In this document: in pieces, positions 3,177 to 56,394 of the stretch
Layout of the letters: every line of letters begins with the position of its first letter
Position numbering within the stretch: the first letter of the stretch is position 1
Source of the DNA: Schmidtea nova
Taxonomy: Eukaryota
Length of the DNA stretch: 64,000 nucleotides
NCBI GenBank assembly: GCA_044892505.1
Contig: CM097884.1
Coordinates: forward strand, 35,278,001-35,342,000
Direction of reading: 5' to 3'
Notes under the pieces: generated by a model
What the model was told of the DNA's origin: nothing
Database searches by the model: none
What the model saw: the letters and a program-made list of their open reading frames with translations, nothing else
Program-made: the position numbers and the translations under genes

Positions 3177-3403
3177 TGGCAGATATTTGTGAAGACTTTG
3201 ACAGGGAAAACTATTACTATTGAAGTGGAAATAATTGACACAATTGCGGACGTAAAAGAGAAAATTCAGGACAAAGAGGGAATACACCTAGTCAACAAAG
3301 GCTTAGTTACCATTGCAAACTATTAAAGGAAGGAAGTAGACTGAGTGATTACCTGATACATGATGAATCCACTATTCATCTATCATTGAGATTGTGTGGA
3401 GGG
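3177..3403 (+). pseudogene. Full-length ubiquitin-like domain fused to Gag (one 1-nt deletion)
   Basis: [38 protein letters not shown][fs][37 protein letters not shown]. The span is 227 nt, i.e. 76 codons minus 1 nt, with about 51/76 identities to ubiquitin by manual alignment. The second half is in frame with the Gag ORF. Confidence 0.93.
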
Positions 3404-4660: not shown

Positions 4661-4716
4661 AACACAGTACCCTACTTCATGTGGATCAGTTAGAGTCTAA
4701 AAGGAAGTAGAACACA

Positions 4717-5880
4717 TTGATGTCCGCTACGAAAGATGATTTGATAACAAGAGAGCAAATATTTCTAAGCTTGAGGACCATACCAATCTATCTTGAGCAT
4801 GGAAGAAAGAAGATTAAAATTAATGCGCTTTTAGACGATGCTAGCTCTATTAGCTACATTAGTCAGAGTATTGCTGACGAGTTGGGTTTAAAATGGAAAG
4901 AGGAAATAGTTCCTGTGAGCGTCATCGAAGGTGACATTCAAAATATGACAACAAAAATAGTCACGATGACGTTAATAAGTTATGATCAGAAGATGAAGAA
5001 GGAGTTTACAGCGTCAGCCGTAAAGAGTGTAACCGGAGAAATGAAGGTAATTAATTGGGCAAAGGAAAAATGGCAATGGGAGCACTTAAAGGATATATGA
5101 TTTCCAATGCTTGATGAACAACAGGTGGTGCATGTTCTTATTGGAGCCGATTATTTAGGGTTGAAAAGAGAGTTGAAGGAAGTGGATGAGAAGATGAATG
5201 AACCTATTGCGAGATTAACGCTGTTAGGTTGGACCTGTGTTGGTAATACGCCGATATGGAAGATGTGGAGTCACCAGAGTAATTTTACGCGAACTTTCTT
5301 TGGTCAGGGAGATGGATTGGATGAAATTGGGCTAAAGGAAGTAGAGTTTTCAAGAAACAATATGGAAATATATGATAGGACTAAAGGCACGTTACGAAAG
5401 GTAGCCGGAAATTATGAAGTGAGAATTCCATGCAAATCGTCACCAAAGTTATTACCGGACAGTGGGTTTATGGCTGAGAGACGTCTAAAAAACCTACAAC
5501 GGAAACTAGAAAACGAAGGAATCAAAGAGGAATATGAAAACATTTTTGAAGATTATATAAAGAAAGATTATATAACAGTTGTTAAAGAAGATCATATAAA
5601 AGATAAAGAAAATGAATGGATTTTACCTCATTTTCCAGTAATAAGACGAGATAAACAAACAACAAAAGTTCGAATTGTTTTTGATGCAGCGGCAAAAAGT
5701 GGTGGAAGGGCGTTGAACGATATAGTGGAGAGTGGACCTAAGCTACAGAACGAAGTGTTCGATTATTTAGTAAGATTTCGGAGATATTCTGTCGCATTAG
5801 TTTAGGATATAGCAAATATGTACTTACAAGTTAAGATTGCTCCGGAAGATAAACCATATCACCGGTTTTTATGGAAAAAG
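4717..5880 (+). pseudogene. BEL/Pao protease and reverse transcriptase N-half
   Basis: All in frame 1, with stops at 5098-5100 and 5803-5805. The similarity ends at HRFLWKK (about 5880), before the catalytic YxDD. RNase H and integrase are absent. Confidence 0.88.
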
Positions 5881-5967
5881 GATAATATTGCTGGTAAAAT
5901 GGTTGACAACTTTAAGTCTGTCGGTATTGCAAGCGAGAATTAAATAAATACTACTTCAAACGAATTA

Positions 5968-6732
5968 GTGCAAAAATTAAGGAAGGAAATTGAATCTACA
6001 ATGGTTGTGGAAGATGAGCAGGCAATGAGTGAAGAAAATACTGAAGAAAATTGCATTGTCGATGAGAAAATTGTGGAAAATATTAACGATATCGATGAAA
6101 ATTGTAAAATTGAGGAAAATAGCGGAGAGAATGTCATTAATGATGAAAAGATGGAGCAAGAAAAATTAGAAAGTTCGAATATTAATAAAAATGACAAAAT
6201 AGATGAAATGTCTTTGGGAATTGAAACTATTTCTCAACAAGTGCAACAATCTGTTGAGTTTCAGCAGTCACTCCAAAATGCATTTGAAACAAGTAAAGAC
6301 AAAGGTGAAAAACTCATGGGAGAATTAAAAAATGTGAATTTGATAAATGAAAATTTAAACGATAAAGATGAATTCAGAAATAGGATAAAAATCTTGGAAT
6401 TAGAAATAGAAGATCTTGAAAATAAAATAAAAACGACCGAATTAGAATATAAAAGTGAAATTAAAGAGTTAAAAGTAAAGTTAAAGAATTTGGCTGAAAC
6501 TGTTGAAACGTTATCAGTGGAGATGGGAAATGTAAATGACATTAACGATAAATTGGAAACGGTGATTTTAGAAATAAAAATGTCCATATGTGTGAGGGTG
6601 AGTATCCAGGATAGTTCAAGAGGATTATTGGTCAAGGAAAAATTCAGGGACAAAAATAAGTATTGGCCGAAATGGAAAAATAAAGTTAAGAATCAGAAGG
6701 TTTGCCCCCCTAGAGATGAATGGGTCGGTTGA
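5968..6732 (+). CDS. Acidic/coiled-coil ORF (254 aa) in the same frame as the truncated pol
   Basis: E/N/K-rich, with heptad-like RIKILELEIEDLENKIK..EIKELKVKLKNLAETVETL. A single TAA (5941-5943) separates it from the RT frame. Confidence 0.5.
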   Translation: MQKLRKEIESTMVVEDEQAMSEENTEENCIVDEKIVENINDIDENCKIEENSGENVINDEKMEQEKLESSNINKNDKIDEMSLGIETISQQVQQSVEFQQSLQNAFETSKDKGEKLMGELKNVNLINENLNDKDEFRNRIKILELEIEDLENKIKTTELEYKSEIKELKVKLKNLAETVETLSVEMGNVNDINDKLETVILEIKMSICVRVSIQDSSRGLLVKEKFRDKNKYWPKWKNKVKNQKVCPPRDEWVG

Positions 6733-10986: not shown

Positions 10987-13900
10987 ATGTCTAAAACAGT
11001 AAATTATTTTTTTATTGATTGTAATTTTAATTAATTTTTTAAAAAATTATATTAGATTGCAATTAAAGTTTCAACAATCGACTCTGAGTTAGAATTCTCA
11101 GTGGCTTCAAACACTACCGGCAAACAACTATTTGATCAAGTCTGTCTAATATATTAATAGAAAATAATTTTTATTTATTAATAGGTCGTCAGAACGTTAA
11201 ATATTCGTGAAATCTGGTGGTTTGGTTTGAAATTTATTGACTCAAAAGGTTTAACTTCATGGTTGAAGTTGAATCGAAAAGTAACTTCACAAGATGTGGG
11301 AAAAGTTTACCCATTGAAGCTGCAATTCTGTGTGAAATATTACCCTGAAGATGTCGGTGTTGAACTGATTCAGGAAGCAACACAACGTTTGTTTTATCTC
11401 CAAGTGCGCCAGGATATATTAAATGGTGAAATCTACTGTCCACCGGAAACCTGCGTTCTTTTGGCTTCCTATGCTTGTCAGTGCAAATATCTGGATTTCA
11501 ATGATACGCTTGTTGCTAACAAAGAAGAATTTATCTACAAGGATAGATTGTTACCGCAAAAGTTTATATTATATATTACTTTCAAACTAGTATTTATTTG
11601 TTGTTATCTCCCGACAGGATAATCGATCAACACGGAATGACAAATGAGCAATGGATTGACAAGATCGTTATGATGTATAAATCTCACAAAGATATGCTAC
11701 GGGAAGACAGCATGCTTGAATATTTGAAAATCGCCCAAGATTTAGACATGTACGGTGTAAATTATTTCGAGATAACTAATAAGAAAGGAACCGAATTATA
11801 TTTGGGTATTGACGCACTTGGATTGAATATTTATAACAAGGATAACAAGTAATGATTTTTTTAAATTGATTAAATTGTGTTTTTGATAAAAACTTAAAAT
11901 TTAAATTATACATTAATAATGGATTATTAATCAATTTGTTTATGTTGAACACTATTTTAATAATTGTTTACTTTGTGTGTCTGAGACAGATAGTTCATAT
12001 TATCATTATTAATTACATAGTTTAATAGGATTTTATTAGATATTAAATATAAGCCAGCTTTCAAAGCTTGAGGTCCATCTATAATATAATCAGTTTATTT
12101 CAGTTATTTTCCATTTTTAGTACAAGATAACAATTTTAAACTAGAGACCGTTTTTCTCTATAAGATAAACAAAATGTTAATGAAACAAAGAGCGCCCCAA
12201 AACGTCAATTAGCGTTATCCGCAATGAATGTATAACGTGTTTTTGATCGAAAACATCTTATAATTGACATAATTTCTATTAATATATCGTATTTAATAGT
12301 CAGTGTGTTTATATTGGATATTATATTGCTACTTGTTTATATTGCGAGAGGTAGTTTATATTATTATTAAATATATAATTTAAAAGCAACTTAATAAACA
12401 CTTGATCATATAACAAGTCGAAATGCTAATATATTTCAGTTATTTTCATATTTTAGGACTAAATCAATATTTTTATTGGTGGATAAATTTTGATCTAGTC
12501 TTAAAAAATAAAATATCTGAAATTGAAAAGGACAAATCAAAAATGCTAATGACCAGATTAAAAAACAATTTCAAAAATAAGATAGTATACGAAATGGCAC
12601 GTCCAATAATGATAATTATAAGCACGCTGGGGATAGCGAATCAAAGGACGCTCAAAATTATTATAAGAATAATTAAATTGAAGAAAAATGATTACATTTC
12701 CAATATCTACAGAAGCGATCTTTGAAAGGAAGTTGTCACTTTATAAAATTAAAATTATTTGTCAAGAATTAAAAAACTTCCATGTAAATTTCACATAAAA
12801 TTGGTGCATCAAATGAACAAAAAATTATTGATTTTGTTATTTTTTTGATGAGAATTTATTTCTACATTGAAAACTGTCAGAAATTTTGGGCTTATTAACA
12901 CACTTTTGCTATGGTTAGTATTTTGCTAACTTTCCCACGGAGTCGAAGCATTTTTATTGCTTGGTATTACGTAATGTTATTTAGAATGTGTTTTGGAAAA
13001 TATTGATAAAATTTTATATTTTTTACGCCAATTGGCTTACTACTTGTCGCTCCGTGATAGAAATGAATGTAGATAGAACACGCACAACTTTTCGGGTTTT
13101 CGGTACGAATTATTTTCTTAAAAATGAAAATTGACTCGAGGAAATGGAAAATAGATATTAAATAGCCATTTCTCATAATAGCGCAATCAAACACAAAATA
13201 TCACCTCCTAAAATACTGATAAAAAGAAGGAGTATTCTGAGAAACTGGAAATCATTTTTAGAATAAGAAAAATCGAATGAAACATTGATCGGCGTGGAAC
13301 GCCAATTGGCGTCATTCCTAACCAAATCGTGTTATTGATCTATCAGCCTATTTGTGAAATTATATGTCTAGTAATGTAATAGATTATTAATCAATGTGTT
13401 TATGTGGAACGTTATTTGTTTATCTTGTGTGTGCGTGTGAGAGAGATACAGTTTATATTATTATTATTATTATTAATTACATCATTATAGTTGCTAAGTT
13501 TTATTCTGCCGACAAACAACTTAAATTAATTTATTTTATTTAGATTAACTGCTAAAATTGGATTTCCATGGAGTGAAATCAGAAATGTGTCTTATTCCAA
13601 TAAAAAATTCTCAATTAAATCTACGGATAAAAATTCATCGGTAAGCTTATGTTATTAATAAAATCAATAATAGTATTTCTGTGGGAGGTTTTTAGCAGTT
13701 TTCAGTAATAAAGCGTTTAGATTTTGAGGGTGTAACACATGTGAATGTGCGAATCGTGTAGTGGGCTCAATTTAGGGCCTTTCAAGAGCATTTCGTTACC
13801 GGGATTATTCTAAATCCCCGTAGTCCCCCGAATGTTCTTTTTTTTAAAAAAAAAAGTATTTGAATATATTACGTTAAAATTTTTTTTTTTAAAATTTTTG

Positions 13901-16900
13901 AATATTGATTTTTTTAGTTTTCACATTTTTTCAAAGTGTAAATAAAAATTTTCAATTTTTCTCAACGTTAATTAGTTGAGCACATCGTGCTGCACATTCC
14001 CCCCGTTGAAAATGTTTTTGTATCACGCGCGAGGTTTTTTGCAGTTTTAGATTTTGAGGGTGTAACACATGTAAATATACAAATCGTGTAGTGGGCTTAA
14101 TTTAGGGTCTCTCAAGGGGCATTTCGTTACCGGGATTATTCTAAATTACCCTAGTTCCCCAAATGTTCTTATTTTTTAAAAAATTTTTTGAATATTGATT
14201 TTTTTAGTTTTGACATATTTTCAATGTGCAAATAAAATTTTTCAATTTTTCTCAACGTTAATTGGTTGAGCACATCGTGCTGTACATTCCCCTTTGTTGA
14301 AAATGTTTTTGTATCACGTACGAAAACACAAGAAAAAGGAAAAAAATTGAAAAATTAAGTTTGTTTTAACTTTCTTTCTATGTCTAAAGAAACTTTTTTA
14401 ATTCGGATATTCGCAAAAAATGAGCGCTGTTTCAAGACTACTTATTTCATTATCTCGTCCCATTGTCTTTAAGCTATGTTTGCTGAAGGAAAATTAAACC
14501 AAACATTAATTTGATATTTTGTTACCGGGATTATTTAAATGTTCTTTTTAAAAAAAGTATATATAGTATAGCTCTGTATGATAGTTTACATTGGCATATT
14601 AAATTATCATCATTATAGGGGACCTGGGTGTGCTGGGTCAGACCAAACCAAGGGGTAATATATAATCAATTAAGTGGAACCTCATTAACCTGTTTATAGG
14701 AATGCTAATAATATATTTTTTTTAATTCTTAAAATTAGGGCGGTTCCGAATCGCATTAAATTCCTCTGACCACGCCAATGTTATCGAATATATCTATTTA
14801 AATTGTTTAACATAATTTTTAAAAAAATCAAATAAACATTTATTTATTATTGTATGAAAATATTATGGTAAAAAATTATTTGACAGAGGCCATCAAAATA
14901 TTGAAACAAATAATTTTAACACTAATAATTAATTTATGTTATTTTATGCTCAATTAAATTATTTTTATTACAATTATTTTTTTTCTTACGATTCTTGAAT
15001 TCTGCTTTATAAGTAAAAATATTTCCAATTATTAATTATAAGTTAATATTTGAAATGGAAATATTTTTTCGTTGTAAATTATTATTTTTTTACATTTATC
15101 ATAAATAAATTTTTGCATTATTCATATTATTAAAATTTCAACATAATTAATTAATGATATTTATTATTATGAAAATATTATGGTAAAAAATTATTTGACA
15201 GGCCATCAAAATATTGAAACATATAATTTTAACACTAATAATTAATTTATGTTATTTTATGCTTAATTAAATTATTTTTATTACAATTATTTTTTTGAAT
15301 TATTCATATTATTTAAATTTCAAGATAATTAATTAATTCTATTTATTGTTGAATTCTATTTTTTCAAATATTTTATTTAATAATCTGTATTGATTTATCA
15401 CTGTAAAATGTTTTTTGAGCACACATTCGTTTTTATTTATTACGTGACTGATAAACGCATTGTAACTAATATGTATGTGATTTTCATTTAAATAATAACT
15501 TTATTAAAAATAATCTTTAATTTATTAATTTAATTTCGTTGAAAATCACTTTTTTATGTCATAATTGAATATTGATTAAAAACTAAAATATTAATTACAA
15601 TTTTGATATAAAATAAAAACACGGTAACATAAAAAATTAAGAGTGGAACTAATTGAAATCACCCAATAAATTAATCGTTTCGGTATTTAAGCGAATATTT
15701 TATAAATTAACTGACTGTACTAGCCGACTTTGTCTAGGATATTTACCATCTGTATATATTGACTAAAAATTCCACTATTTCAATGAAAAAAATTGAAAAT
15801 GCACTATCAAATTAAATCATCACAAATTTTTAATGTGATTGGTCAAATTCATTTCCACCTGTGATGATAATGGCAATATTGTGTCCTAGAAATAGTTACG
15901 GTAACAGGAATTTCAAATAAAAAAATTTGCAAATCTTACGATTCTTGAATTCTGCTTTATAAATAAAAAAATTTCCAATTATTGATTATATGTTAATATT
16001 TGAAATGGAAATGTTTTTTCGTTGAAAATTATTATTTTTTATTACATTTATCATAAATAAATTTTTGCATTATTCATATTATTTAAATTTCAACATAATT
16101 AATTAATTTTATATATTATTCAATTATATTTTTTCAAATATTTTGTTTAATAATCTGTATTGATTTATCACTGTAAAAAGTTTTTTTGAGCATACATTCG
16201 TTTTTACTTATTACGTGACTTGAAAATAATAACTTTATTAAAAATAATCAATAATTTATTTGTTTCATTTCATTGAAAGTCACTTATTTGTTATAATTGA
16301 ATATCGATTAAAAACTAAAATGTTAGTTACAATATTGATATAAAATAAAAACACGTTAACATAGAAAATCAGGAGTGTAACTAATTGAAATCACCCAAAA
16401 AATTAATCGTTTCAGTATTTTAGCGAATATGTTTATAAATTAACTAACTTTGACTAAAAATTGAAAAAGTCTTATCAAATTAAATCAATATTAAAGTGGT
16501 TGGTCAAACTCATTTCTAGGATTTTCAAATAAGAAAATCTACGCAAATTTCACGATCATAGAAAACTGACCGAATTCTGCTTTATAAGCTAAAATATCCC
16601 CAATTATCGATTATATGTTAATATTTGTAATAGAAATGTTTTTTTTGTTGAAAATAAAAAATGAATGTAAAATTTTCACACGACTTGCGATGGATTTTAA
16701 ATGGGACTCATTTCGGACAATATGACAGAAATATACATCAATTCTCCATTAATCACATTTATTGCAATTAAATTAGGGGGGAAATAAACTCCACATTTTA
16801 AATTAGATATAATATTTCATAAATCTGACCTAGAAAATTTGATATTTGATATTGATTTATGCCTCTTAATAAATTCCAAATGAAAACAAATTTATTTTTA

Positions 16901-18045
16901 ATCAACACTAATTGACCAAATATTCACTTGTGATATTTTTCTAAATAACAATTCCGATTTCAGCCAACATTTGATTCAATATCTCTAATAACTTTATTTT
17001 TACCGATTATAATTTATTTTAATATATCAAACAAGTTCAAAGTTCGAGTTTGTTTTATTTAATTTTATTTTTTACTAAGAATAATGACAAAACATTTAAT
17101 TTTCAGAATTTTGTCTTCATGACTAAACATTCTCGAATAAACAAAGCAATTTTAAACCTTTCAATGGGCAACCATGACTTGTATTTACGAAGGAGGAAAA
17201 ATGAAACAATCGAAATGCAACAAATGAGAGCACAAGCCGAAGAGGATAAAAAGGCGAAATTAGACAGCAAGTAATGATAAAAGAAACTCCCTGTCAGCTG
17301 CTGATTAATGTCCCGTCGTTTTAGAGACAAAGTCAACCAAGAAAGACTCGCTAAAGAGATTGTGGAGAAAAAACTAGCGGAATTGGAATTGATTCTCAAA
17401 GCGTCGAATGAGAAAAACGAAGAAACCCAGAAGCAACTCGAAGAGTACGAGCGTAAAATCAGAGAGCTGGAAATCTTATTGGAAGAATCCAACAAGCAGA
17501 AACAAGATCTGGAATCAATGCATGAGAAATTAGCCGCCAATAACAAAGCGTTAGAAGAAGCGCAGAAAACCGTCAGCGAAGACTACGAGAAATTGTTGCA
17601 GGAAAACGAGGCGATCCAGTCGGAAATCCATTTGAAGAATTCCGAAGTCCAACAGAGCGCAATGGAGTTATCGATTAGACAAGCGGAACTGGAGAAGCTG
17701 CGGTTGGAGCGAGAAGAGCTGGAAATCAAAGCCCGGCAATTGGAGGAGATCGCCATTGAGAAGGAGAACAATCGCGAAGAAGCTCACAATTTCGAATTGC
17801 TGGAAACCGGCGATGACCGACGAGAAGAAAACCGAACGACAACGCTTTCCGGTAACAAAGACCTTCAGGACCAATTGAAATGCTTGGCCAATGAATTGGA
17901 AGAAAGGAGACTCGAATCGAAACTCGATCAGACGGATATGATTCACAGAGAAAATCAACGCCAAGGACGGGATAAATTTCAAACTCTTCGTCAAATTCGA
18001 CAGGGTAACACTAAAAAGCGAGTCGATGAGTTCGAATCGCTTTAA
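10987..18045 (+). CDS. ERM: ERM family protein (moesin/ezrin/radixin homolog), 7 exons, 561 aa
   Basis: join(10987..10998,11056..11139,11185..11561,11618..11848,13544..13640,17107..17270,17325..18045) = 1686 nt, all GT-AG, open throughout. It contains the FERM domain ([37 protein letters not shown]), a helical region and the ERM C-terminus [26 protein letters not shown] with the regulatory Thr. Confidence 0.97.
11920..13485. repeat. Pair of ~110-bp direct repeats bounding an insert in ERM intron 4
   Basis: GATTATTAATCAAT(T/G)TGTTTATGT(T/G)GAAC...ATTAATTACAT occurs at about 11920-12025 and about 13380-13485. Confidence 0.55.
13686..14320. repeat. Tandem duplication (units of ~345 and ~290 bp) in ERM intron 5
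   Basis: GAGGTTTTT.GCAGTTTT..AGATTTTGAGGGTGTAACACATGT...GAAAATGTTTTTGTATCACG is repeated at 13686-14030 and 14031-14320. Confidence 0.9.
14830..16640. repeat. Patchwork of overlapping local duplications in ERM intron 5
   Basis: About 14835-14975 recurs at about 15165-15300. About 14976-15150 recurs at about 15935-16110, with a partial third copy at about 16570. About 15340-15720 recurs at about 16110-16450. Confidence 0.8.
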
Positions 18046-25079: not shown

Positions 25080-27850
25080 TTAAATGACAAATGGAAACAA
25101 TTCTAATATGTGCGCTATAAGAAGAGAATCATACGCATCTATTGCAAATAAATGTAAATTTAACAGACGTCCGCTAGAGAGCACGACAGAGAAATCGAGT
25201 TATGGATCAGCAAGACCCAAAAATAATCAGTACGTACCAATAATAGAGGAGGATAAAACTGAGAACGAACGGTATTTTAAAGGACGAAATGGTTTTTCAG
25301 AAACATAAAGGAAGATTCCAACAGCATCACTGAAAGATATAGCCAGAAGAATTGTCAGAAGAATGACAATAAGTCGAGAACGACACCAACACCAGAGAAA
25401 TTAGCTCCTGATCAGTGTTTCTGCTGTGGAGAAAGAGGAGATTGACGTTTTGAATGCCCAATAAAAGATAGATGTCTCATTTGTGGTAAGGAATGCCTTC
25501 GATTCAGAGGCTGTTATTTATTGAATTATAGAAACAATTACAAGAAAAGAGTAGCATGTAAATATGAAGAAAATCTTACAAATAGCAACAACAAAGACAC
25601 CGAGCATGCCTATAGTAATTACGATGAAAGGATACAAAAGTCAATGGACAAAGCAAAAAACAGAGACGACCCCATTGCTTTCCTTTCGTCAGTGGGATCG
25701 GCACAATAGAGAAGAGAGAGAATCGAAATGAAGTCTAGAATCTGAAGATGTAAGAGACGGATGATAGAAGAAAGTGGAGTAAGATTATTTTGAATGGAAC
25801 AGAGATTGATATGCTGTGGGACTCTGGAGCATCAGTGGCAGTGATGAGCAAGAGCAGTTGGACAAAAATGGAAGACCAAAGCTGACAGTAAGTAATACCT
25901 CATTTTGTGGAGTGTTTTTATCTAGTTCGTAAAGACCACCAGGAGAAATGACGATAGAAGCAGATTGGAATGGCAAGAGGAGAAAAATAAGTGTGATTGT
26001 AGTTACAGACATACGGCCGAATTTTAATGGTGGTCTACACACGATGGAAAAGTTTGGAATTCAGCTTGTAGAGATCAATAATATCGAAGCATCACTGATG
26101 GGGAAGACATCAGAATTCACAACGAGAAATGAAAGTGCTGGAGATGTTGGGGAGTTGTAAAGACGAAGATTTAGAAAGACTTATACTGAAATTCAGAGAA
26201 ATTTTTATGGCATCAACCCTTGACTTGGAATTCACCGAAATGGTAAAACATGAGATGGATATAACAGGAGATCCAGTTAGAATACAGCCCAGAAGACAAC
26301 CAATATACCTGGAACAGAAACTAAACGAGTTAATTCTCAACTTACTGGAAGCAAAGGTCATTAGGAAATGTAAAAGTGCATGGAACGCACCGCTGGTGAT
26401 AATTGCAAAGAAAGACAATTCCATTTGAATGTGTGTGGACTACAGAGGATTGAATGCCATTACAAAAAAGTGTCGTTTCCAATGCCAGATAATCGATTCC
26501 TTTTGGATTGCCTGGTAGATTCCAGGTATTTTACTTCCATTGATCTAGGACATGCCTATTACCAGGTCGGGATGGCGGAAGAAATACAAGACGTCACAGC
26601 TTTTAGTACAAGGCAAGGACAATTTTGCTTCAACAGGTTACCTTTTGGACTGGCAACAGCGCCAACAACATTCCAGAGGATGATGCACTCAGTGCTATAA
26701 GGAATATTGTTTAAAGGAGTTGTGGTTTACCTAGACGATATATTGATTTATGGAAAAGACAGAAAAGAACATTATTTACGGCTAGAGGAAGTATTTAAAA
26801 GGATACAAATAGCATGGTTGAAGATGCGATATTTTTAAAAAAGAACTGACATTTCTGGGACTCACTGTTAGTTCCAAGGGGATAAAGACAAATGACAAGA
26901 AGATAAAAGAAATTAAAGAGGCAGAGATACCGACATGCGCTAAACAATCGAGGTCGTTCCTGGGTATGACTACCAACTACAGGAAGTTCATAAAAGATTA
27001 CGCAAAGATTGCTGAACCGTTGTACGCAGCCACTTCCGGATGCGGGAAAATGATTAATTGGTCAGAAGATTGCAATAAAAGTTTTGAATTGCTTAAAACA
27101 AAATAATGTGAAGCCCCAATCCTGGATTATCCAAGAGTAGAGGATAAATGTATTCGGGACACAGATGCCAGTTTTGGAGCCAAAACCGATTATAACTGCT
27201 TAAGAAAGACGGAAAGAATGTTATATTAGTACAATTTGACTACACTAATACATTAGTCAAAGACATACATACAGAAATGTGTCATATTGGAGTGAAGAAA
27301 TTAACAAATTACATGAGCGATTTATTTTTTTGGCCGAATATGCAAGGAACAATTCAAAGCTGTTTAAGATCATGTGAAATATGTTGTAAACGGAAGATAG
27401 TACAAGAGAAAACAAATATACGACTGATACCGATAATGAGTTCAGATTTCTTAGAACAACAGGTTGTAGATATAGCCCACATGAAATCTCAAGGAAGTTA
27501 CAGATATTTATTAGTTATTATTGACAGTTTTAGCAAGATGGTTAGTCTAACTGCACTGGAAAGACAAGATGAGAAATCGTTGTTCAAAGCCATATTAGAG
27601 AAGTGGATATATAGATATGGTAAACCACGAAGTCTTTTATCAGACAAAGGTAAGAATTTCGACAGCATGTTCGTGAAGACATATATAGGAAAGTTAGGCA
27701 TCGAACGACACCTGAGCTCACCATACCAACACAAATCGAATGGGCTGGTGGAAAGGACTATACGAACAGTCAGAGACTTATTAACAACTTCTATATTCAG
27801 TGGATTAGGGGAGAAAAATTAGGTAGATTTACTCTCACGTATATAATTTT
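25080..27850 (+). mobile_element. Ty3/Gypsy retrotransposon, decayed gag-pol with an internal deletion
   Basis: Zinc knuckle CFCCGERG..ECP (about 25410). RT motifs SAWNAPLV, CVDYRGLN, IDLGHAYYQ, RLPFGLATAPTTFQR and YLDD (about 26730). RNase H start DTDASFG jumps to integrase (HIGVKK..FFWPNM, VDIAH..IIDSFSK, SDKGKNF, SNGLVERTIRT). Confidence 0.93.
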
Positions 27851-28037: not shown

Positions 28038-28570
28038 TGTTGGGCTGGTAGAAGTGAAATAAAATATTTGTTTTAATGCGCTGTAAGATATATAGTAACT
28101 AAAACAGACGAAATAAAAAATCACAATAATACATAGAGCATTTTGTAGTAAAATTAGCACAAAAGAATATAGAATATTAAAAAACAAATAGTAGGCATAC
28201 GAACCGCATTTCATAAGTCGGTCGAGGTAAGGATAAAACGATATAAAAGTTGCATCTCAAGAGAGCACATAATTTGAGTGCAAGTCAGATTAACAAACGA
28301 AAGGCCGCATGAGAATTGAATGTTGTAGATCATTGCTAATAAAAGCATGATTGAAGAATGAAATTAGTATATTTAAATAGAGAGAATAATCTATTAAAAA
28401 TTAAAAAAGAAATTCCCATTAAAATATCGCAAAAATTGCAGAAATAAGAACAGAAATAGAAAAGATTCGATCATTTAATCAGTTACCGCACGCAAAATGA
28501 CGCCATATTAGACACACATTATTTAATAGAATTAAAAATAAATATTTAGAAAATAAATTATAAAATTTAT
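28038..28570 (+). repeat. Dispersed LTR-like repeat, copy 1 (copy 2 at 31776-32320)
   Basis: Both copies start TGTTGGGCTGG and share CATACGAACCGCATT..ATAAGTCGGTCGAG, AATTTGAGTGCA.GTC and GAGAATTGAAT..GATCATTGCT. They are clearly diverged. Confidence 0.7.
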
Positions 28571-29539
28571 TTTACGGGAAAAAATGTTCGGAGGAAACTG
28601 AATTCCATTAGTTTGGAAGCAAATGTAAACATAGCATGTAGTGACAAGGAAAGAAGTACACTCAAATATTTGAGGAATACATCAAATAAAAAGTAATCAA
28701 CAGATACATAGGTAAAAGTTAATTAAAACAAAAATAAAATTGAACAAATTGCAAGAAGTAAAGACGAGAAAACACAAACAAAACAATTTAACAAATAACT
28801 CATAAAAGAATTAGATAAATATAAAAATTCAAAAATTTTCAAATAATTGTCTTAATTTTAATAGTATAAATGTCAAAATATAAAAATAAATTGTAAAAAT
28901 TAAAATTAAAGTAACTAAAATTTGCGTAAAATATAAAATTTTGGTAAAAATAAAATTTATTAAAGTAATAGATAAAATTTGATACATTAATAAAAATTTA
29001 TTTTATTAAAAAGAAAATTTTACCCTTTATATAAATTTAATTAAACAAAAAAAAATTTAGAGCAGTTTGTTTTACTGCATCAATTAAATTAAAAGACCTG
29101 AAAATGGTTTATATAGTAATGCCATTTTCAGTAATTAAGAACTCTGTTCTGAAAAGTGAACACTTTTGGAAAACACTCGTGTTTTGAGAATTTTAAAACA
29201 CTTGTTTGAAAAATAGAGCTTTTCTATAAAAAAGAGAATATTTGGAACAACTCTATCGGCGAGCATCGTTATTCAGATTATTGGAGGGACGGCATCATTC
29301 TCAGCATACTAAGTATGCCAGTTTAATGTTTTGCTTATCCTAATTCATTTTTTATTTGGCACCGGCTCATACCCCGGCTGTCTATGTTATATTATTGCTC
29401 CATTGATGAAATAAATAATTTAAAATTCAATCGACTTTCGATGTGCGAATAAAATGTTGCAAGCATAAAATAAAATGAAAACTGATTTTTGTTTTTCTTT
29501 ATCTCCCGATCTATCAAATTGCTAAGTCACTGTGGGATC

Positions 29540-29660
29540 CCAGATTGTGGACAAACAAGTTTGGAGTAGATTCTCCCGAGTAGTCCGACCCCATGCTTTC
29601 AACGCGGAACCCAAGTCTGGCATCATACTATACGTAAATGTCAGAGAACGGCTGGATGAG
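29540..29660 (+). pseudogene. Possible non-LTR (RLE-type) C-terminal zinc-finger remnant
   Basis: PDCGQTSLE*ILPSSP resembles CP.CG..SLEHILSSCP, followed by WHH in another frame. The match is weak. Confidence 0.3.
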
Positions 29661-29845
29661 CATCCACAGGATTGTTATATTAAATTGAATTCTTCCTTAA
29701 TTAACGTTTGAAATTTTTTAGTGTTCAAATTAAAATCTTCTTTAAATATGAGGAACAAGCATGACATTGATTTGAGTTTATGATGAGAAAAAAGAGGAAA
29801 GTGAGATAAGTGTTATACGACAAGCGAAATATAATCGATTGGGTA

Positions 29846-29886
29846 GCACCTGATGAAGAGAATTAAGTTCTCGAAATACATTGTGC
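29846..29886 (+). ncRNA. Minimal type I hammerhead ribozyme, copy 1
   Basis: GCAC-CUGAUGA-A-GAGAA(UUAAG)UUCUC-GAAA-U-AC-A-U-U|GUGC. The core is intact, with a 5-bp stem II, a 4-bp stem I and a minimal helix III. Predicted cleavage after 29882. Confidence 0.72.
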
Positions 29887-30800
29887 AAAATATATATTTG
29901 GATTTGCGTTTGTTGTTAATTATTTTAGTGCCATGCTTGTTGTGTTATGTATTAAAGAAAGATAATAATCCGTCAGTTGTTCCGGTATTCTGTGAAAGTT
30001 TGTCTAGGAAAATGTTTGTATTTAATTTTTATAATTCTAAATGTATAGAGTTTTATATTGTCAAATAAGTATTTCGATTTAATGATGAGGTTTACACTAT
30101 TCTATTCTTATTCTATTGTTTATGAATTAATTGATGTGATTTTTGGCGATTCTAAGTTTTCTGTATTGTTCTTTGCTCTGTTCTCGTTTATATTTTCAAA
30201 CGTCATGGGTGAAATGCCACATATATTGGAAAAGACTGCCCGTCTTCTCTGTATTCGAGTTTCAGAGCGGAGTCAATTAATGGGATTTAGCGTTGTTTTC
30301 AGTCATATCGTTTGTTTGTGAATATGTGAGTGTGAGAGTTTTGAATCCGTGTGTTTGCCTCATTTTTTGCGGTTTAAGTAAATTAACTGATGTGGCTGTT
30401 GATGATGTTTATTTTCTTCTTTTGATTTGTGTTCTATACTCGTTTAATTTTTCAAATGTCATGGGCGTAATGCCACATACTTTGGACAAGACTGATCGTC
30501 TTTTCTGTACTCGAGTTTTAGAGCATTTTCAATTGGGGATTATGGATTTCGTTTTCAATCACTCTGTTGTTTATAAATATGAAAATATTTATAATATATT
30601 CTTAAAAAAATATTTTTTTGTATAACAATAAAAGAATATTATATTTTTAAGATTAATTTATTTAAATTAAAAATTTTTTAATCGATTTAAATTTTTTGAC
30701 TATAATAGAATTTAAAATATATATTTTATTTTAAAAATTAATACTAATTTGTTCGAAAAAATCGATTTATTTGATTTATATTTGAATGTAAGATTGGGTA

Positions 30801-30841
30801 GCACCTGATGAAGAGAATTAAGTTCTCGAAATATATTGTGC
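30801..30841 (+). ncRNA. Minimal type I hammerhead ribozyme, copy 2
   Basis: Same as copy 1, but helix III is the perfect palindrome AUAUAU. Predicted cleavage after 30837. Confidence 0.78.
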
Positions 30842-31585
30842 AAAATATATATTTGGATTGGCGTTTGTTGTTAATTATTTTAGTGCCATGCTTGTTGTGT
30901 TATGTATTTCTATAATATTGTTTTGTTTAGATTTTTGATGATTAAGTATTTATGAATTCGATAATAAATTCAAATTACCATTCTACCTTGACATAATAGA
31001 AAAATAAATATACCAAACATTGTTTGTAGACAAAAATGCGATTTAACCAATCGAAATTACATTATAAATAAAGAAAGAATAAAATAAGCCCAAATCATAT
31101 ATTTAAATCAAAACTTATGACAAAAGTTCCTATAAAAGTTCTCCAGCAATAAAAGAAACAACAATTTCCAATAATCGTAAGAATTGTAGGAAAATTGTCC
31201 CAGCCCAGGTGAAAAACGAAGATATTTCCCAACATCTTAAAATAGGAAATAAATCATTAAAATTTCTATAATAATAAAAAATACCTACGGTTTAGAAAAG
31301 CATGATGTGGCTATAGTATCAGAAAATTTCTATAAATTATATAATGAGTAGATCAATAAATAATCAATAATTTTATCATGATAAATTCACTCTACGATAT
31401 TCTAGAGACACTCACTTTTCTTTTCTTCACATGAAAACACCTTGATTAATCTTACACATCTTTATTAAATAATGTAAAACATCTAAAATTGAGATCTTAT
31501 GAAATAAATCCATGACCCGTCTTTACTTCTTACTGTCATAATTTTTGAATAATTGAATGAGTTCAATTCAACCTTGAGTAATTTA

Positions 31586-31774
31586 ATAAATTAATAATTA
31601 AGTAACTAAATAAGCCTTTGCTGCAAAACAATTTTATTAAGTGAGAAAATTTTCGATTATAACATAATCCTCGTATTTTATTTTATAATGGAAAATTTTC
31701 TCACTTAATTATTAAGTCTTAATAAAATTGTTTTTGCAGCAAAGGCTTATTTTGTTACTTAATTATTAATTTAT
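31586..31774. mobile_element. Foldback/MITE-like element with long imperfect inverted arms
   Basis: ATAAATTAATAATTAAGTAAC.AAATAAGCCTTTGCTGCAAAAACAATTTTATTAAG..TGAGAAAATTTTC is mirrored on the right arm. TA dinucleotides lie at the ends. Confidence 0.8.
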
Positions 31775-31775
31775 A

Positions 31776-32320
31776 TGTTGGGCTGGCGAAATCGAAAAAA
31801 AAATTTGTGTTAATTTATATTCAAAAGGGAACAAGTTTAAAACGCACTATAAAGCATTACGCAGTAAACTATCGCAAAAGAAAATAAAAATAGTAAAGTA
31901 TAATAGTAATCATACGAACCGCATTCGATAAGTCGGTCGAGATAAAGCTTAAACGATAGAAAAGAGGCATCTCAAAAAACAGCCCACAATTTGAGTGCAG
32001 GTCGCATTTACACACGAAGGACTGCACGAGAATTGAATAGGGAAGATCATTGCTTGTATAAAAATAAAGCAAAGCATGATCAAGGAATAAAATTGACATT
32101 AGACTAAAGAAAATAATTTATTAAAAATTATAGGAAAAATCCTCATTAAAATATCAGAAAAATAACAGAGGTAGGAATAAAAATAGAATTCAATTAAAGT
32201 TGATTGTTTTAATCAATCAATAAATGTACGAAATCAAGGGACACACACATCATTTATCGGAATTAAAATCAAATATCTTAGAAATAAACAAATTAAATTA
32301 TAAAATAAAATTTACAAAAA
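31776..32320 (+). repeat. Dispersed LTR-like repeat, copy 2
   Basis: Homologous to 28038-28570, with the same shared blocks. Confidence 0.7.
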
Positions 32321-32623
32321 ATTAAATAAATAATCGTTTATTGAAACAAATAAATTGAGTTTCAATCATAATATAATGGAAAAATGCGTGAATGTCAGTC
32401 TATTTAATATAAATAGACGCAAAAAATCAGTTGAAAAAATTTTTTTTTCTATTCAATTTAATTAGTTGGGAGCTAGCAGAAATATTAATTTCAATTTCGT
32501 CAGACAGTCGCGTAGGTGAGTAACTTTGTTTGGTGTATGATAATTTGTAATGAACATCGTATTTAATCAGGTTATGTGAATGGTAGTCAATAAATATTTT
32601 GAATCATCCATTTTATGATTAAT

Positions 32624-35275: not shown

Positions 35276-35849
35276 AATCGATACCAAAGATGTTATAACT
35301 CCAATTTGGAGAATTGACAGTGCACGATATGCATAAATGTTATTTAATAAATGTTAGTAATTTCAATTTGAGTTTTTGATTGTTCGAAATTTTATAAGTC
35401 TTAAAAATTTTTTTATATATTTTATTATTATTATTAATATTATTATTATTATTATCATCAAACAGATTTTGATGACCTACTTTTTAACATAGAATAATTT
35501 TAAAGTTTTTATATTTGACCTATATAATTCTGCCATAGAAAATTATCTATTTGACCTACTTTTTCTGACATAGAAAAATTGTTCGTGACCTACTTTGTTG
35601 ACCTTAAAGTATCCTTAATGTACTCTTAATTCTGACTTTGAAAAATTTCGAAATTTATTATTAACCTACTTTATTTTTACATAGAAAAAATTTTAGAAAA
35701 TATTATTATTGACCTACTGAATTTGTCCTCATCATGACCTTAAATTGACCTACTTAATTCCGATAGAGAAAATATTTTAAATTTATTATAACTTTGAATA
35801 ATTTTATATTTGACCTACTTATTTCTGGGCTATCGCGTCTAAATAAGTT

Positions 35850-36450
35850 GTTTTTCAATGAATAACATCATTAGAGTTGGAATAAACAGTACATCAGTAA
35901 ATACCATAAAAATGGGGAAATGCATTGTAATTCAACGAATAACAGCGAAATTAAAAACAGGTTGTGTTTCAGTGAATAACATCAAAAGTGACGAAACTGC
36001 ATCAAAAGTAATGAGAACAAATATATTTCAGTGATATACATCAAAAGTTGGAAAAATCATTGTTTTTCAGCCACTAACATTGAAATTTAAAATATATGTA
36101 TTGCTTCAAAGAATAGCATCAAAAGCGAGAATGTGTATTGCGTGTCAATGAATAATATGAAAACATATGTGAATAGTATCGAAAGTGAAAGTATATGCAA
36201 CATTTCAGTGAGCGCCAAAATTGAAAGTATGTGTTGCAATACAGTGAATAACATCAATATCCGAAATATAGTGGAGTTATTAACATCAAAAGTGAATAAA
36301 TGCGTCGATGGACAATGAATAACATCAGAAGATGAAAAATACTCATCGTGTTACAATGAATAGCACCCGCGGAAAATTTAATCGAGGACACAATGATTAG
36401 CACCCGAAGCCATAGTGAAACGAAAACACAACCAATAACATCATATTTAA
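35850..36450 (+). repeat. Degenerate ~36-39-bp tandem array, probably a decayed coding repeat (SVNNIKS-like units)
   Basis: Recurrent core CAGTGAATAACATCAAAAGT with variable linkers. In-frame stretches read SVNNIKS, SKNSIKS, SMNNMKT and TVNNINI. Confidence 0.7.
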
Positions 36451-49876: not shown

Positions 49877-52255
49877 CAGTTGAACTTCCCTAAGTCGAAT
49901 AACCATAGTTCACTGAAAAAAATTCGAGTTATAGAAAATTCGAGTTATAGAAATAATAACTCCAAAATGTGTATAGTACACGTTAAACAATCTACTGACA
50001 GTAAATATGTACATATTATGAGTATCTATAAACAAAAAAATAACATTACATTATTATTTATTGTTTTATAAAACATTATATTTTTAAAAAGTCAGTAATT
50101 TTTGTTTGCCTTCCATTAAACAATTCTTTATTCACAAAGTTCTCTAAAGTTGATAACGCGCGATACACCTCGTCTGTAAGATTCGTTTTTGAACACAAAT
50201 ATTCACTACACTTACTTAAAAAATAACTCATTTCTTTGTTTGTAGGTGAAATCGGCACTGTAAAGGTATTTTGGATGCTAGAAAAGACATTTTCATTTTC
50301 ATTTTCATTTTCATTGTCATCTTCATCTTCATCTTCCTCTTCGTGATTTTTAGTCATGTTTAAAATATCGGAATCTGTTGGATAGTCCACTATAACTCCG
50401 TCTTCATCTACAGACAAAAAATCACCAAGAGACACTGTATTGCCGACATTTTGTTGATTATAAATGTCAAACACGGATCTCAATTCTGACAGAGGCATAT
50501 CATCTTCTTCACTACAATTTCTTTCGCCGTGTTATTTGAAGCCAGCCTTTGTGAAACAATTTTTTATGGTTGCTTGCTGTACATCGGTGTTCCACGCTTT
50601 CGACAAGTTTGTAATAGCATCTCATAAAGTAATATTTCCCGTCTGATTGTCTTCTTCTAAGGCAATTAAAGTTTTTCTCAGAATTCTTGTTCTATAGTGC
50701 AATTTCATATTGTTGATAATTCCTTGGTCCATAGAATTTTGGTGGGAGAAAAACTACACGAATCGAATTAAGCTGCTTCGTAATTTTTGAATGTGACGGA
50801 CAGTTATCCACAAACAGCAAGATTTTACGTTTTTCGGCATTAAATTTCTTGTCTAAACTAGAAAGCAATTCTTCATAAACTGCGCTTGTCATCCAAGCTT
50901 TTTTGTTGCTTCTGTATATCACTGGTAAAAAAACGTTTTCCTTTGAAGCAACGCGGATTTTGAGGTTTTCCAATGACCAACAGTTTTAGTTTTTCGGTAC
51001 CACACATATTGGCTCCCACCATGACGGTGATTCTTTCTTTGATGTGCTTTCCGCCGAAGCACTTGTTATCTTTAAAGGTTAACGTTTGATCAGGCAAATA
51101 TTTAAAAAATAAGCCCGTCTCGTCCGCGTTAAAAATGTCTTTTTCATGATAAGATGCTATAATTTCCGGTAAAATATTGTTGCGCCATTCTTCACAATTA
51201 TGTTCATTAACATCTGCACTTTCACCACACACAACCTTTTGAATAATATTATGCCTCTTCTTAAACTTATCTAACCAACCTACACTGGTGACGAAATTGG
51301 TGTGTCTCAGACTCGCAGCAAAATAAAGTGCCTTTTCCCTAATAAGTAGGCCAGACATTAGTACATTCTTATCCCGAGCAATTTTAAACCATTCCAAAGT
51401 AACTTTGTCAATGTCTTCGTAGGTACAGTTTTTGGAACGTTTGCGATCAGTAGAAACACCATTTTCGACCTTCTTCATAATTTCTTCGCTGTTTTTTATA
51501 ATTGAAGAAAGTGTATTTGGAGGAATCCCAAAGTCTTCAGCAATCACTTTTTTCTTTTTAATACCTTTATCAACTTCACTTATCAACCTCACTTTGTCAG
51601 ATAACGACATCGTATTTAGTTTTCTTTTTTGGCCACTCATATTTGCAATTACGGCAGAAGAAAGAATGTGTTTAAACTTAAAAATTTGATTGATTTATAA
51701 CTCTTTTACTATAAAAAATTAATATCTATATAAATCTCCCAGAAACTATTATATTCAGCAATTATATTCATACAATAGCATATTAAAAAAACGAATGGAT
51801 TTAATTTTGTAAATTCTTTATCTAATAACCAGTTCATCTATTATTTCTTTATTTGTATGCAGAAACAAAATTTCTGTGAAATTATATTATTTTTAATGCG
51901 ATTACCTATTATACTTACAGCTACATATTTGTTAATAGCTCTCGTTATTACAGCCAATAAATACTTTACAATTGGTTTATGTCAACAATATTTGGAGAGA
52001 TTCCTAACAATAAAAAGAAATATACATTTTGGGAAGTACGCGGTAAAAAAAATTCGAGATATAGCGATTATTTTATATGTAAACTTTGACCAAATTGACA
52101 AATCTTTACTTCGAGTTATGGGAATATTCGAGCTATGGAAATTCAAGTTATGGAGCCTAATTCATATGGAAAATGCTATCTAAACGTATGAATATCTAAA
52201 GAAATTCGAGTTATATTAATATTCGAGATATAGAAGTTCAAGTTATGGAAGTTCA
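49877..52255 (-). mobile_element. pogo/Tigger DNA transposon with a frameshifted transposase (50076-51640)
   Basis: CENP-B-like HTH domains, FNADETGLF, KERITV, LLFVDNCPSH and MDQGII. TIRs CAGTTGAACTTCCCTAAGTCGAA and TGAACTTCCATAACTTGAA, the right tip replaced by (TA)n. Frameshifts at about 50960 and 50735. Confidence 0.92.
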
Positions 52256-52517
52256 TATATATATATATATAATTTCGAAAAAAAATATTTCGTTTAAAAT
52301 TACATAAAATCATTATTTAAAATTATTATTATTTATGTATATATGATTTTTTTACTTTAAAAGGTGTAATTCATTAGCATGAATTGAGGTAAGACAATTC
52401 ACAGAATAAATTCTAATTACATATATAAAACTTTTATTAATTGATTATAAAAATGAAGCATGAACATTTTGCTTGATATTCGCTGTAAAAATCTGTTGGT
52501 TTCTTTATAATTGAATA

Positions 52518-55073
52518 CAGCACTGCGCAGTTTTTAATATACAGTTGTGATCGAAAAAATATAATTACATCCAGTTAAAAGATGCTTTAAACCGAATTCC
52601 CATACTAAAATAATTATTTATAAGGAAAAAATAAATTTAGTTTTTTATGATAAAATTCTTTAAACATTTTATAAAGATATAGCTATAAAAAATTACAAAT
52701 AGCCTTTAATCGATAATGTAAGTCACCGTAGATCTTCTGGATCTACTTTCATAGTACTTATTTTTAAACTCAATGTACGACTTTCTAATTTCAATTTCTT
52801 AAAAATGCAACAAATTATCTAGTTTTTTGAATGATAATTTACAGATTCAATCGTAGATGCTTCCGATATATCGCAAATGATTTCATCGAGACAAAATAAG
52901 GATTCATCATAAATAGGATCATCTTTCACCACACAGTCTGGATCAATAAATATATCAAACAAAACTTCATTTTCATCTTTTTCTAAATCTGCATTCTGAA
53001 GCTTCTCTTTCATTTTTTCAAACTTTTCCCAACAATTCAAATATGTCCCGGGAAGAACTTTATTGATAGACTCTCTTATCCAGTAACATACTTCTAGCAA
53101 TGGCAAAGTACTAAAACAAGATTTTATTTTCGCACTATTATCAATTATCATATTTGTAACAAAGTTATTGACATATTCAGAATACTTAGACTTGATATCG
53201 TTAATTATACCTAGATCTAGAGGTTTAAGATCGATGTAGTATTAGGTGGCAAAAATAACAGTTTCACGTTCGAAAATACACCAACCTCGTGACCGTTAAA
53301 ATTATCGCATAATATTAGGATTTTTCTATCCTGTTTAATCATTTCGTCATTTAGATCGTTTATATATTTCAAAAAAATATCTTTGGTAAGCCACGAATAT
53401 GTGTTGTTAGCATATTTGAGGTTGTAATTATCTGGTTTCTCGTTTTTAAAAGCCCTGGGGTTTTTGCTTTTTCCTATGATTAATGGCGTAATCTCATCAC
53501 CGTATTTATTAAAACACAATAAAAGAGTAATTCTTGTTTTATCAGTTTTTATACTTTTTCTATCATCTTCATCCCTCAGAATGTAACTTCTTCTACCAAA
53601 ATTCTTGATATATAGACCAGTCTCATCTAAATTGTAAATATCTTTTTCATCATAATATTTCTTTATAGCTTCAAATTCATCAAAAAAGTCAAGAATCTTG
53701 TCTGTCATAGCAGATTTTGCCTCTCCGCAAAGGGATTTAAATGCCACATTATATCGCTTTTTAAAACCTCTTATAAAGTATGGTGTGATGTTCACACGGC
53801 AAGATGGTGTTATTGATTTATATCTTTTGCCAATGATATTAAGTTCTCCATTAAAACATTGCCGCCTGCATTTATATTGATCAATGTTCAATAGCTTGAT
53901 TTTTGCAGCTTTACATAAATTAAAAGTATCCATTGTTGGATCATCACTTTCCAAGTTTAAAAGCTTAGCCGAAGATTTGATTGCTGTTCTAATAACCTTT
54001 TGTGATACATTAAATTCTTTTTTGATGTCACAGAAAGCCTTTTTATCCTTTTTATATGCTTTGGCAATTTCTCTTTTTATTCTTTTGGTCAGGGCCGTAA
54101 CAAGGGTGGTGCGAGCGGCGCAGTCGCACAGGGCACACACCTGAAAGGGGCGCAAAATTGGGATGTAAAATCTTTTTAATGTTACCAAAAAATAAAAAAA
54201 TTATCAAATGGCATGCCCGTAAAAAACGACACCCTATCTAGCCTATTTTTAACATTACTGGTTCGACTGGTCCATTAGCGTGCCTTCGTAAGTGTGTATT
54301 TTGGAACGTTTGACAAGTTGATAAAGTGTGTCAATTAAAATTTATTTTGCAAATTCTTTGAACTATGATAACATTATTGACGATTTTGCATCATCAAAAG
54401 CTCGCAAAGTTTATATTAAATAGGTTTGAATAAGCTGGTTATAGAATATTGTTTATAAAATCTTACAACTCCATTACTATACCAGCTAGCTGATGATAAA
54501 AATATAAGTTTCATTTTGTAAAATTTTAGTCCACAAAATTGGTTCTTGTCATTTTTTCAATTAGCAACAAAATTTTAAGACCCTTACTACCTATTACAAT
54601 AGCTGGAGATGAATACATAGTTAACAATCTTAACATGAACATTATAATTATTATAGTAGACTGTTTTGAATTCGCGTGCTGGGGGCGCCAGATATGTGAA
54701 CAGCACAGGGCGCAATAATGCCTTGTTAGGGCTCGCTTTTGGTGTAAGTTTTTCCTTCTTTCTTATTTAAGTCCATAATGAAGATTGTCTTAATTTTTAA
54801 CAAAAATTGATTTTTATAGGTAAATATATACTCTATTAAATTTTAAGTAAAATAATGCCTTAAAGTTTTAACATGCCCTAAAATTTTATTATAAATCGCA
54901 GAATTGCTCGAAAATATTGCTTTTAAAAAATAAAAACTAAACGATATATAAAATTATTTTATTCTTTTTGACATCATACAAAATTTTAATAGTGAAATTC
55001 TTTTCTTACAAGATAAATGCCTTAAAAATTTAACATTTACAGTCTATTTATGTGCCCTAAATATCGCACACTA

Positions 55074-55113: not shown

Positions 55114-56394
55114 TCTCAAATGGCTCATTTGCTGATAATTTTATCGTTTCCTCTTTTGTAGTTGATGTTACTACCATTACTCTTTGACACGGCTCACATT
55201 CTTAAATTATTTCTTTTACTATTTCTTTAATATTTTTCATATCGTAGTTGTTTCCCATATACAATGTCATTTATTCGACTCCTGCGTGAGAAAGTAAACT
55301 GTGAATTGTCTTTATCACCTCCTGGCGTTTATCTTCAGGGATCCATATTTTCCTTTTCTTTGTTTTCACTATACCGTTTCCCAGAATAAACTTCCATGAC
55401 ATATCTCGAAAAATCTCTTCTTTTATTTGTCTTATCTCTGTCCTAATTTCTTGCCATTCGATCTTTTCATTGTTATCTATCGCATTAATTCTTCTGGTCT
55501 TTAGCTTACTCTCCTTTAAGTCTTCATGTATTAATAAACATTGTGTGCACGTTCCACATGCCTTCCTTGATAATATATCTGCGTTAGTGTGTTTTGTCCT
55601 TTCTCTGTATTCTATTTTTATATCAAAACTACTGAGAAGGTTGATCCAAGTCTGGAATTGTGCTGAGATCGACTTCTTTGTCTTCAACATGAATGTGATC
55701 GCTTTATGATCTGTGAGTAATGTAAATTTTCTCCCGTACAGATAATGATTATAATTTTGGCAAAAAATAAAGAACCGCTAATAATTCCTTTTTCATTATG
55801 CAATATCCCTTTTTGTGGTTGTTCATTGCGTGCGATTCATACGCTATAATCCTTTCATTTCCCTCATCGTCTAACTGTGATAATACAGCGCCGATTGACC
55901 CAAAACTGGCGTCTGTATCTAAAATAAACTCTTTATTGACATCGGGGAAACCCAATACTGGTTTTGACGTCAACGCCTCTTTCATCTCGTAACGCTCTAT
56001 CGCAATTACCTGTCCATACTAGTTTCTTTTCTTTATTCTTCTAGTGATCTCGACTTTTCTGAGTAATCTTCAATAAATCTCCTGTAATAATTACATATCC
56101 CTAGGAAGTTTCTCAAACTCTTGATACATTTTTGTCTTTGTAATGATCGTATTGACTCTGTTTTCGCTGGGTCGGTCTGAATACCCTTTTCATTGATGAT
56201 GTGCCCCAGGAACTTAATCTCCTTTTTAAAATGTGGAATTTCTCCGGATTAATTTTCAAACCAGCTTTCCCTATTCTTTTTAATTCGTCCTCCAGAACTT
56301 GATAGTGTTCATTGATTGAATTTGTGAATATTAAGATGTCGTCTAAGTAAACTGCCGTTCTTAGAAACCAAAACAAATTCTGATCTATAGTCAT
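55111..56394 (-). mobile_element. Ty3/Gypsy pol remnant
   Basis: VYLDDILIF (RT), PVLGFPD..FILDTDASFGSIGAVLSQ and TDHKA (RNase H), HSLLSHAGVE..CEPCQ (integrase Zn domain). It is cut off at the (TA)n at 55077-55110. Confidence 0.9.

Follow-up and report, generated by a model that had tools for sequence, protein, structure and literature searches.

Penelope-like elements (PLEs) of the EN-positive type carry minimal hammerhead ribozymes with an extra nucleotide after A9, a long stem II, a short stem I and a palindromic helix III (PMC4209133), and PLEs insert as partial tandems with an inverted arm and a 30-40-nt tail (PMC8557442, PMC3846280); for an anole PLE, two internal start sites and cleavage at ATT have been described in vitro (PMC11167929). 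Cleavage by the minimal PLE hammerheads is weak, that of dimers included (PMC4209133), and in the anole PLE cleavage is protein-dependent and dispensable for insertion in vitro, no RNA ends having been found at the site (PMC11167929). Metazoan non-LTR retrozymes are non-coding units that each carry a type I hammerhead and occur as dimers to long arrays (PMC7229834; bioRxiv 10.64898/2026.07.22.740005); self-paired folding has been described for retrozyme circles (PMC7229834), and among nine Xenopus retrozyme dimers cleavage was reported in one and none in eight (bioRxiv 10.64898/2026.07.22.740005). Putative non-autonomous Chlamys PLEs, for example MRC1, combine pseudo-LTRs and multicopy head-to-tail insertions with similarity to autonomous families (PMC8557442).

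The stretch analysed here, hereafter the window (64 kb; G000:C3:35278001-35342000, where G000 is its own AT-rich assembly of 1.25 Gb), contains one insertion of what is almost certainly a protein-free, high-copy, non-coding deletion derivative of a PLE, which we call family A. Like the non-LTR retrozymes it is non-coding, has one type I hammerhead (of the minimal form) per tandem unit, forms dimers to multimers at many loci, is low in GC, has a self-paired predicted fold and co-occurs with PLEs; its units of 955-963 nt contrast with described lengths of 150-450 nt in most cases (the preprint extends this to 972), its hammerhead is PLE-type rather than canonical, it keeps ORF relics from both PLE ends whereas the preprint's retrozymes are PLE-similar at their termini, and it is known here from DNA sequence, its circle being predicted. 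With the EN-positive PLEs (PMC4209133, PMC11167929, PMC3846280) it shares the hammerhead architecture outlined above, partial tandems, an inverted 5'-truncated arm, a 30-nt tail and ATT-rich targets, but it has neither reverse transcriptase (RT) nor open frame and its endonuclease segment is duplicated and frameshifted. The likeness to the Chlamys elements extends to the features listed for them; those, however, belong to an N-terminal-endonuclease clade without canonical hammerheads (PMC8557442), whereas family A comes from C-terminal-endonuclease families with hammerheads. Unlike the plant-type LTR retrozyme, with its type III hammerhead, true LTRs and 4-bp target duplication, family A is type I and shows no visible target-site duplication at 29837-30908. 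By every feature testable in sequence family A appears to be a non-autonomous PLE, one that would work like a non-LTR retrozyme. The class is known; new are the ORF relics, a doubled constrained box and the strong fold. Where the PLE descent and mobilisation of animal retrozymes have so far been argued from co-occurrence and terminal similarity, family A retains pieces of the ORF from each end together with the scars of PLE insertion, and shares its genome with three intact high-copy candidate helpers.

The insertion (29837-30908; + strand, as are all element features below) comprises one 955-nt unit and a 117-nt terminal overlap, or pseudo-LTR, as judged from its repeats and from flanks that are contiguous in relatives of the target repeat. 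In order, it consists of a first minimal type I hammerhead (29846-29886), an internal copy of the post-cleavage region and tail (29887-29953), a relic of the PLE ORF N-terminus (29954-30124, ~125 nt shorter than in older subfamilies), a GIY-YIG relic (30167-30282) frameshifted by one extra base, a second GIY-YIG relic (30423-30538) that is an old duplicate of the first with the identical extra base, an AT-rich 3' untranslated stretch (30539-30800) predicted to pair back onto the unit's 5' part, a second minimal type I hammerhead (30801-30841) and a post-cleavage end region (30842-30908) whose short end lies near 30878 (+41) and long end at 30908 (+71), with 30879-30908 as the PLE 'tail'. Each GIY-YIG relic contains a conserved box (30199-30263 and 30455-30519), and the same three-way RNA junction is predicted for both. 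The target, for which no strand is assigned, is an older dispersed repeat split into a left part (29000-29836) and a right part (30909-31600); in relatives at ~80% identity the two halves are contiguous, ~26 nt apart; the empty-site reading is inferred from these diverged relatives. GATT is common to target and element at the 5' junction. The older repeat family surrounding the insertion (28151-28575 and 31866-32322; 29000-31600) occurs twice in the window, ~3.7 kb apart at 77% identity, and at least 40 times in G000.

The first-pass annotation had proposed a tandem pair of self-cleaving minimal hammerheads delimiting a retrozyme-like 955-nt unit. The pair is real: two 117-nt direct repeats (29837-29953 and 30792-30908), 98% identical and spaced by 955 nt in the window, differ at two positions only (29879 C / 30834 T; 29905 T / 30860 G), and each carries a full type I core in the order GCAC, CUGAUGA, A, stem II, GAAA, U(A C/U A)UU and, past the cleavage point, GUGC. 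In the first copy, stem I pairs 29846-29849 with 29883-29886, the core spans 29850-29856 and stem II 29858-29872. H17 lies at 29882 in copy 1 and 30837 in copy 2, with cleavage predicted after each, in agreement with the positions proposed earlier. The proposed 5-bp stem II needs a small amendment, as its five Watson-Crick pairs are followed by a sixth, U.G pair closing a UAA triloop; helix III has two pairs. A minimal-hammerhead descriptor matches at these two places only in the 64-kb window (29850 and 30805); 300 simulated 64-kb sequences with matching trinucleotide composition gave two hits, a chance expectation of 0.007 per 64 kb. The two ribozymes do not form a stand-alone pair: the unit is non-coding, hammerhead-delimited, PLE-derived and of the retrozyme kind, and the repeats are the pseudo-LTR overlap of a single insertion. 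The checks suggested at that stage included an Rfam search, a genome copy count and covariation in stems I and II. The Rfam search gave no hammerhead match at the gathering score or at E up to 10, presumably because helix III is missing, whereas copies number in the thousands and both stems covary across families (see below).

The palindrome AUAUAU, noted earlier in copy 2, proved to be the family norm, being present in 72 of 76 ribozymes from 40 loci picked without regard to that position, and hammerhead 2 has the family consensus. The AUACAU of copy 1 is a private change (C at 29879) that breaks the palindrome, and the predicted helix III duplex is weakened accordingly, from -2.6 kcal/mol between two consensus copies to +1.1 kcal/mol between copies 1 and 2; in isolation, the minimum-energy fold of the ribozyme is not the active fold. 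Only 46 nt of the element lie upstream of the first cleavage site. With so short an upstream part and the weakened helix III duplex, the copy at 29837-30908 would be expected to be a poor source of monomers, and it is probably a dead-end daughter.

Across G000, a 30-nt piece of the ribozyme core has 6,545 exact matches (reversed control, 0) and a 32-nt body piece 2,732. Copies are scattered over all three large contigs; their 5' ends vary, inversions occur and two 3' ends are fixed. They form a succession of subfamilies from 71-74% identity up to near-identical copies, the older ones (71-90% identity) with an additional ~125 nt close to where the body starts. The largest array seen contains 32 ribozymes at a period of 963, with 22 of 31 units identical, the first unit truncated and the 3' end full. 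A short direct duplication marks the 5' start of this array (G000:C2:372268500-372298750; L125-L128), and its 3' end is followed by a tandem repeat of a different, AT-rich kind. At another locus (L243:150-910) a family A body is joined without interruption to the 3' part of family C, both having the same orientation, which is either a nested insertion or a template switch.

The unit carries no protein-coding capacity: its longest ATG frame has 79 codons, the relics are broken, antisense frames in the body are short ones only, and the single RT plus GIY-YIG ORF of an autonomous PLE is absent, no RT segment being found in the unit. Its origin can nonetheless be read from the relics. The GIY-YIG relics are 76-80% identical in nucleotides to intact family B and about as close to family E, and the N-terminal relic of an older subfamily matches residues 132-184 of family B (36% amino acid identity, E 3e-5). 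The unit thus reads as a ribozyme and tail, followed by the N-terminal and the two endonuclease relics and closed by the AT-rich 3' stretch; its body is, by its sequence matches, a decayed PLE ORF and not an unrelated sequence. Three intact families were found in the same genome: B (903-codon frames that match RVT_1 and, weakly, GIY-YIG; period 2698), C (period 2544; split frame in the array sequence read) and E (850-codon frame, period 2876), C and E being related at 57-61% amino acid identity. By their domain order and the absence of a Cys-rich linker, both read by eye, they are candidate members of the Penelope/Poseidon clade, which is defined by a C-terminal endonuclease with no Zn-finger-like linker (PMC8557442) and by RT phylogeny. 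Families B and E both fit as helper by end geometry and neither is a close parent; outside the relics no close intact parent was found among the best 150 matches of each search (GIY-YIG, family B, family E), identity being ~59-68% in nucleotides, and since the searches list those best 150 matches a closer, rarer parent family could be hidden. Measured from stop to stop, the family B frames (L135:342-3053) are 903 codons long; they reach into the start of the next unit, and the hammerhead is within the open frame. The family E hammerhead (L247:1186; L225:870-960) combines the core CUGAAGA with a 6-pair stem II and ends GAAAUAUAUC. The post-cleavage regions of families E and A have a common TTGGCGTTT...TGCCA motif.

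Family A shares its double 3' ends (+40/+72) and AAT targets with the intact PLE families of the genome. In a sample of 40 loci, drawn with a preference for pairs from the 100 exact matches that come first on C1, the 76 ribozymes comprised 33 at short ends, 31 at long ends, 11 internal and one truncated; of the 64 terminal ends, 33 fall at +37 to +45 and 31 at +68 to +87, mostly 68-78 nt past the cleavage site. An AAT/ATT microsatellite then follows 32 of the 64 ends, a bias towards AT-rich targets, and 22 of the 40 loci consist of two inverted arms, one finishing at the long end and the other at the short end, a share inflated by picking pairs on purpose. Family B behaves in the same way, with 18 of 38 ends at +38 to +47, 15 of 38 at +65 to +81 and 21 of 36 followed by the microsatellite (a few loci overlap), and family E ends fit the double-end and target pattern by eye. 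The tail and ATT preference of families A and B match those described in PMC11167929 and PMC8557442. PLE ends belonging to different families often face each other across AAT microsatellites (L225, L014, L156/L187, L058), which suggests repeated insertion into each other's ends. Two further ideas were rejected. Different inherited alleles in internal versus terminal repeats (L001-L030) proved to be ascertainment, as those loci had been fetched with copy 1 as query; the idea was dropped because the 40 position-blind loci carry neither copy-1 allele. A hairpin spanning the short 3' end, seen by eye, is broken in the youngest subfamily.

The hammerhead itself recurs across these families. A loose core pattern gave 12,697 matches against one for its control, in three families with different stems II. 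In a hand-picked set of 14 representatives, drawn from four families, 92.9% of cells are paired and nine of 12 pairs show two-sided change, whereas slid pairing controls reach at most 63%; relatedness of the sequences inflates the shuffle test. Within the non-coding lineage, conservation of the ribozyme as a whole does not significantly exceed that of the body (4/38 versus 86/612 positions differing, p 0.37); the core and stem I positions alone differ at 0 of 23. The family A hammerhead is likely a self-cutting RNA motif.

We give slightly better than an even chance to a model in which the non-coding PLE derivative is copied in trans by the RT-endonuclease of intact PLEs, most likely from a hammerhead-excised circle. 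Tandem source loci would be transcribed and cleaved, dimerically or with the assistance of a protein, via the AUAUAU palindrome, and ligation would give a self-paired circle of 955-963 nt. A helper protein, from family B or from family E, would bind this circle, the doubled junction of the GIY-YIG region probably assisting, and would nick ATT-rich DNA; copying would start downstream of the junction, at a distance of 40 or 72 nt, and by continuing beyond one unit would leave the 117-nt overlap found at 29837-30908. Directly supported are the descent from a PLE ORF, the loss of RT and frame, the PLE-type insertions, the covarying stems and cDNA read-through of the cleavage site.

The 5' ends of near-full arms bear on the template. 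Nine lie at +6 to +105, one within 5 nt of the cleavage site and 11 at -6 to -89, and 37 further arms (14 distinct contexts) extend beyond -89 upstream; the ends are evenly spread. A linear template cleaved at its 5' end is disfavoured because such RNA would give a pile-up at the site, and the absence of a pile-up leaves a circle or an uncleaved multimer. On balance we lean, by a little, towards a circular RNA template. The other reading, plausible but in our judgement on the improbable side, keeps the element and the helper and makes the template an uncleaved linear multimer from tandem loci, with the hammerhead as scaffold or rare cleaver and no circle. Read-through of the cleavage site and internal 3' starts fit it equally, long arrays exist as possible sources, and unprocessed RNA was the dominant substrate of the anole PLE in vitro (PMC11167929). 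Yet the catalytic core and palindrome are kept in four families with covarying stems, and subfamily alleles are common to the repeats within most single insertions. The strong self-paired fold, typical of circles, likewise counts against a linear multimer: the unit is predicted to fold at -236.5 kcal/mol (z -8.9 and -9.3), compared with z -1.4 to -3.8 for the last 955 nt of families B, C and E and about 0 for the flanks. Subfamily changes showed no excess of pair-keeping over this long-range fold (23 of 39 kept, 18 expected). Subfamily majorities seemed to fold more stably the younger they were (z -1.5, -5.0, -7.4; young unit -10.9; eight shuffles each), a trend that was not relied on because a majority built from six decayed copies is noisy, z is ~0 for single old copies and the same span in the window gives -5.5.

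Besides ribozyme and tail, family A points to a second cis element, inside endonuclease codons; sequences kept by a non-coding parasite can map the poorly known cis requirements of PLE transposition. Where B, C and E encode the same residue, the codon itself is identical at 12 of 13 positions within the GIY-YIG core versus 134 of 346 elsewhere; the core is the sole run of 11 invariant codons (scan-wide permutation p 0.009) and holds five of the 10 invariant G/C-ending codons. In family A, the two 65-nt boxes, with limits set from the B/C/E result, differ at five of 124 positions between the oldest subfamily majority and the young array unit, versus 86 of 612 in the remaining body (p 0.0006); the slower divergence holds for G/C and A/T positions alike, and a similar gap was seen earlier with BLAST-defined limits. 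A nucleotide-level constraint on the box is thus well supported at the sequence level, and the two conserved segments likely help family A to borrow the copying enzyme of its intact relatives.

Whether the box acts as RNA or as DNA is a separate matter. It could serve as DNA, as an internal promoter or enhancer for the next downstream unit rather than a protein-bound RNA structure, a reading that we regard as possible but unlikely. The box is mostly invariant, none of 18 pairs in the two box hairpins shows two-sided change, local folding is modest (z -1.3 to -2.9), and the upstream partial copy has been proposed as the site of PLE promoters (PMC3846280). RNA structure is favoured by the prediction of an identical three-way junction, a closing stem with two hairpins, in B, C, E and both relics, by the extended structure, in which 94% of cells pair over 28 pairs (two with two-sided and 10 with one-sided change, a weak covariation signal), and by the frame-breaking extra base, which is predicted to pair a former bulge. 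Only tentatively do we suggest that GIY-YIG codons hide a protein-recognised cis RNA element, and that the parasite shed coding, doubled the element and evolved a rod-like circle that out-competes its helpers. As part of this joint reading, family A may, with similar doubt, be a stepwise record of the birth of a retrozyme, from a 2.7-2.9 kb parent through ~1.08 kb to 0.96 kb. The literature covered, with Repbase and most subscription papers outside its scope, contained no description of family A or of a cis-element in PLE endonuclease codons. That family A is instead a dead PLE fragment spread as a satellite by recombination, with ribozyme and boxes as unselected relics, is very improbable: variants common to several units of the 32-unit array are as expected under unequal crossing-over, but the insertion anatomy (dispersal, variable 5' ends, inversions, two 3' ends, microsatellite targets) largely refutes it, and the subfamily succession and slower change of the boxes also speak against it.

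Other features of the window include an inverted pair of 95-nt stumps (31580-31774; 89% and 78% identical) of another PLE family (L052; 856-aa frame, period 3136). When intact, that family carries a Cys-rich linker and a variant of the minimal hammerhead in which position 3, opposite G8, is U. An ezrin/radixin/moesin-type gene, recognised by matches to FERM and ERM_C, has exons at 11185-18045. Broken retrotransposon and Tc5/pogo-type transposase pieces occur at 2889-6732, 26099-27822, 50876-54200 and 55274-55777, the retrotransposon pieces including ubiquitin beside DUF1759 and a protease, RT and integrase, and RNase H. Lastly, short diverged direct repeats of 21-36 nt, in up to six copies, are clustered at 35490-36335.
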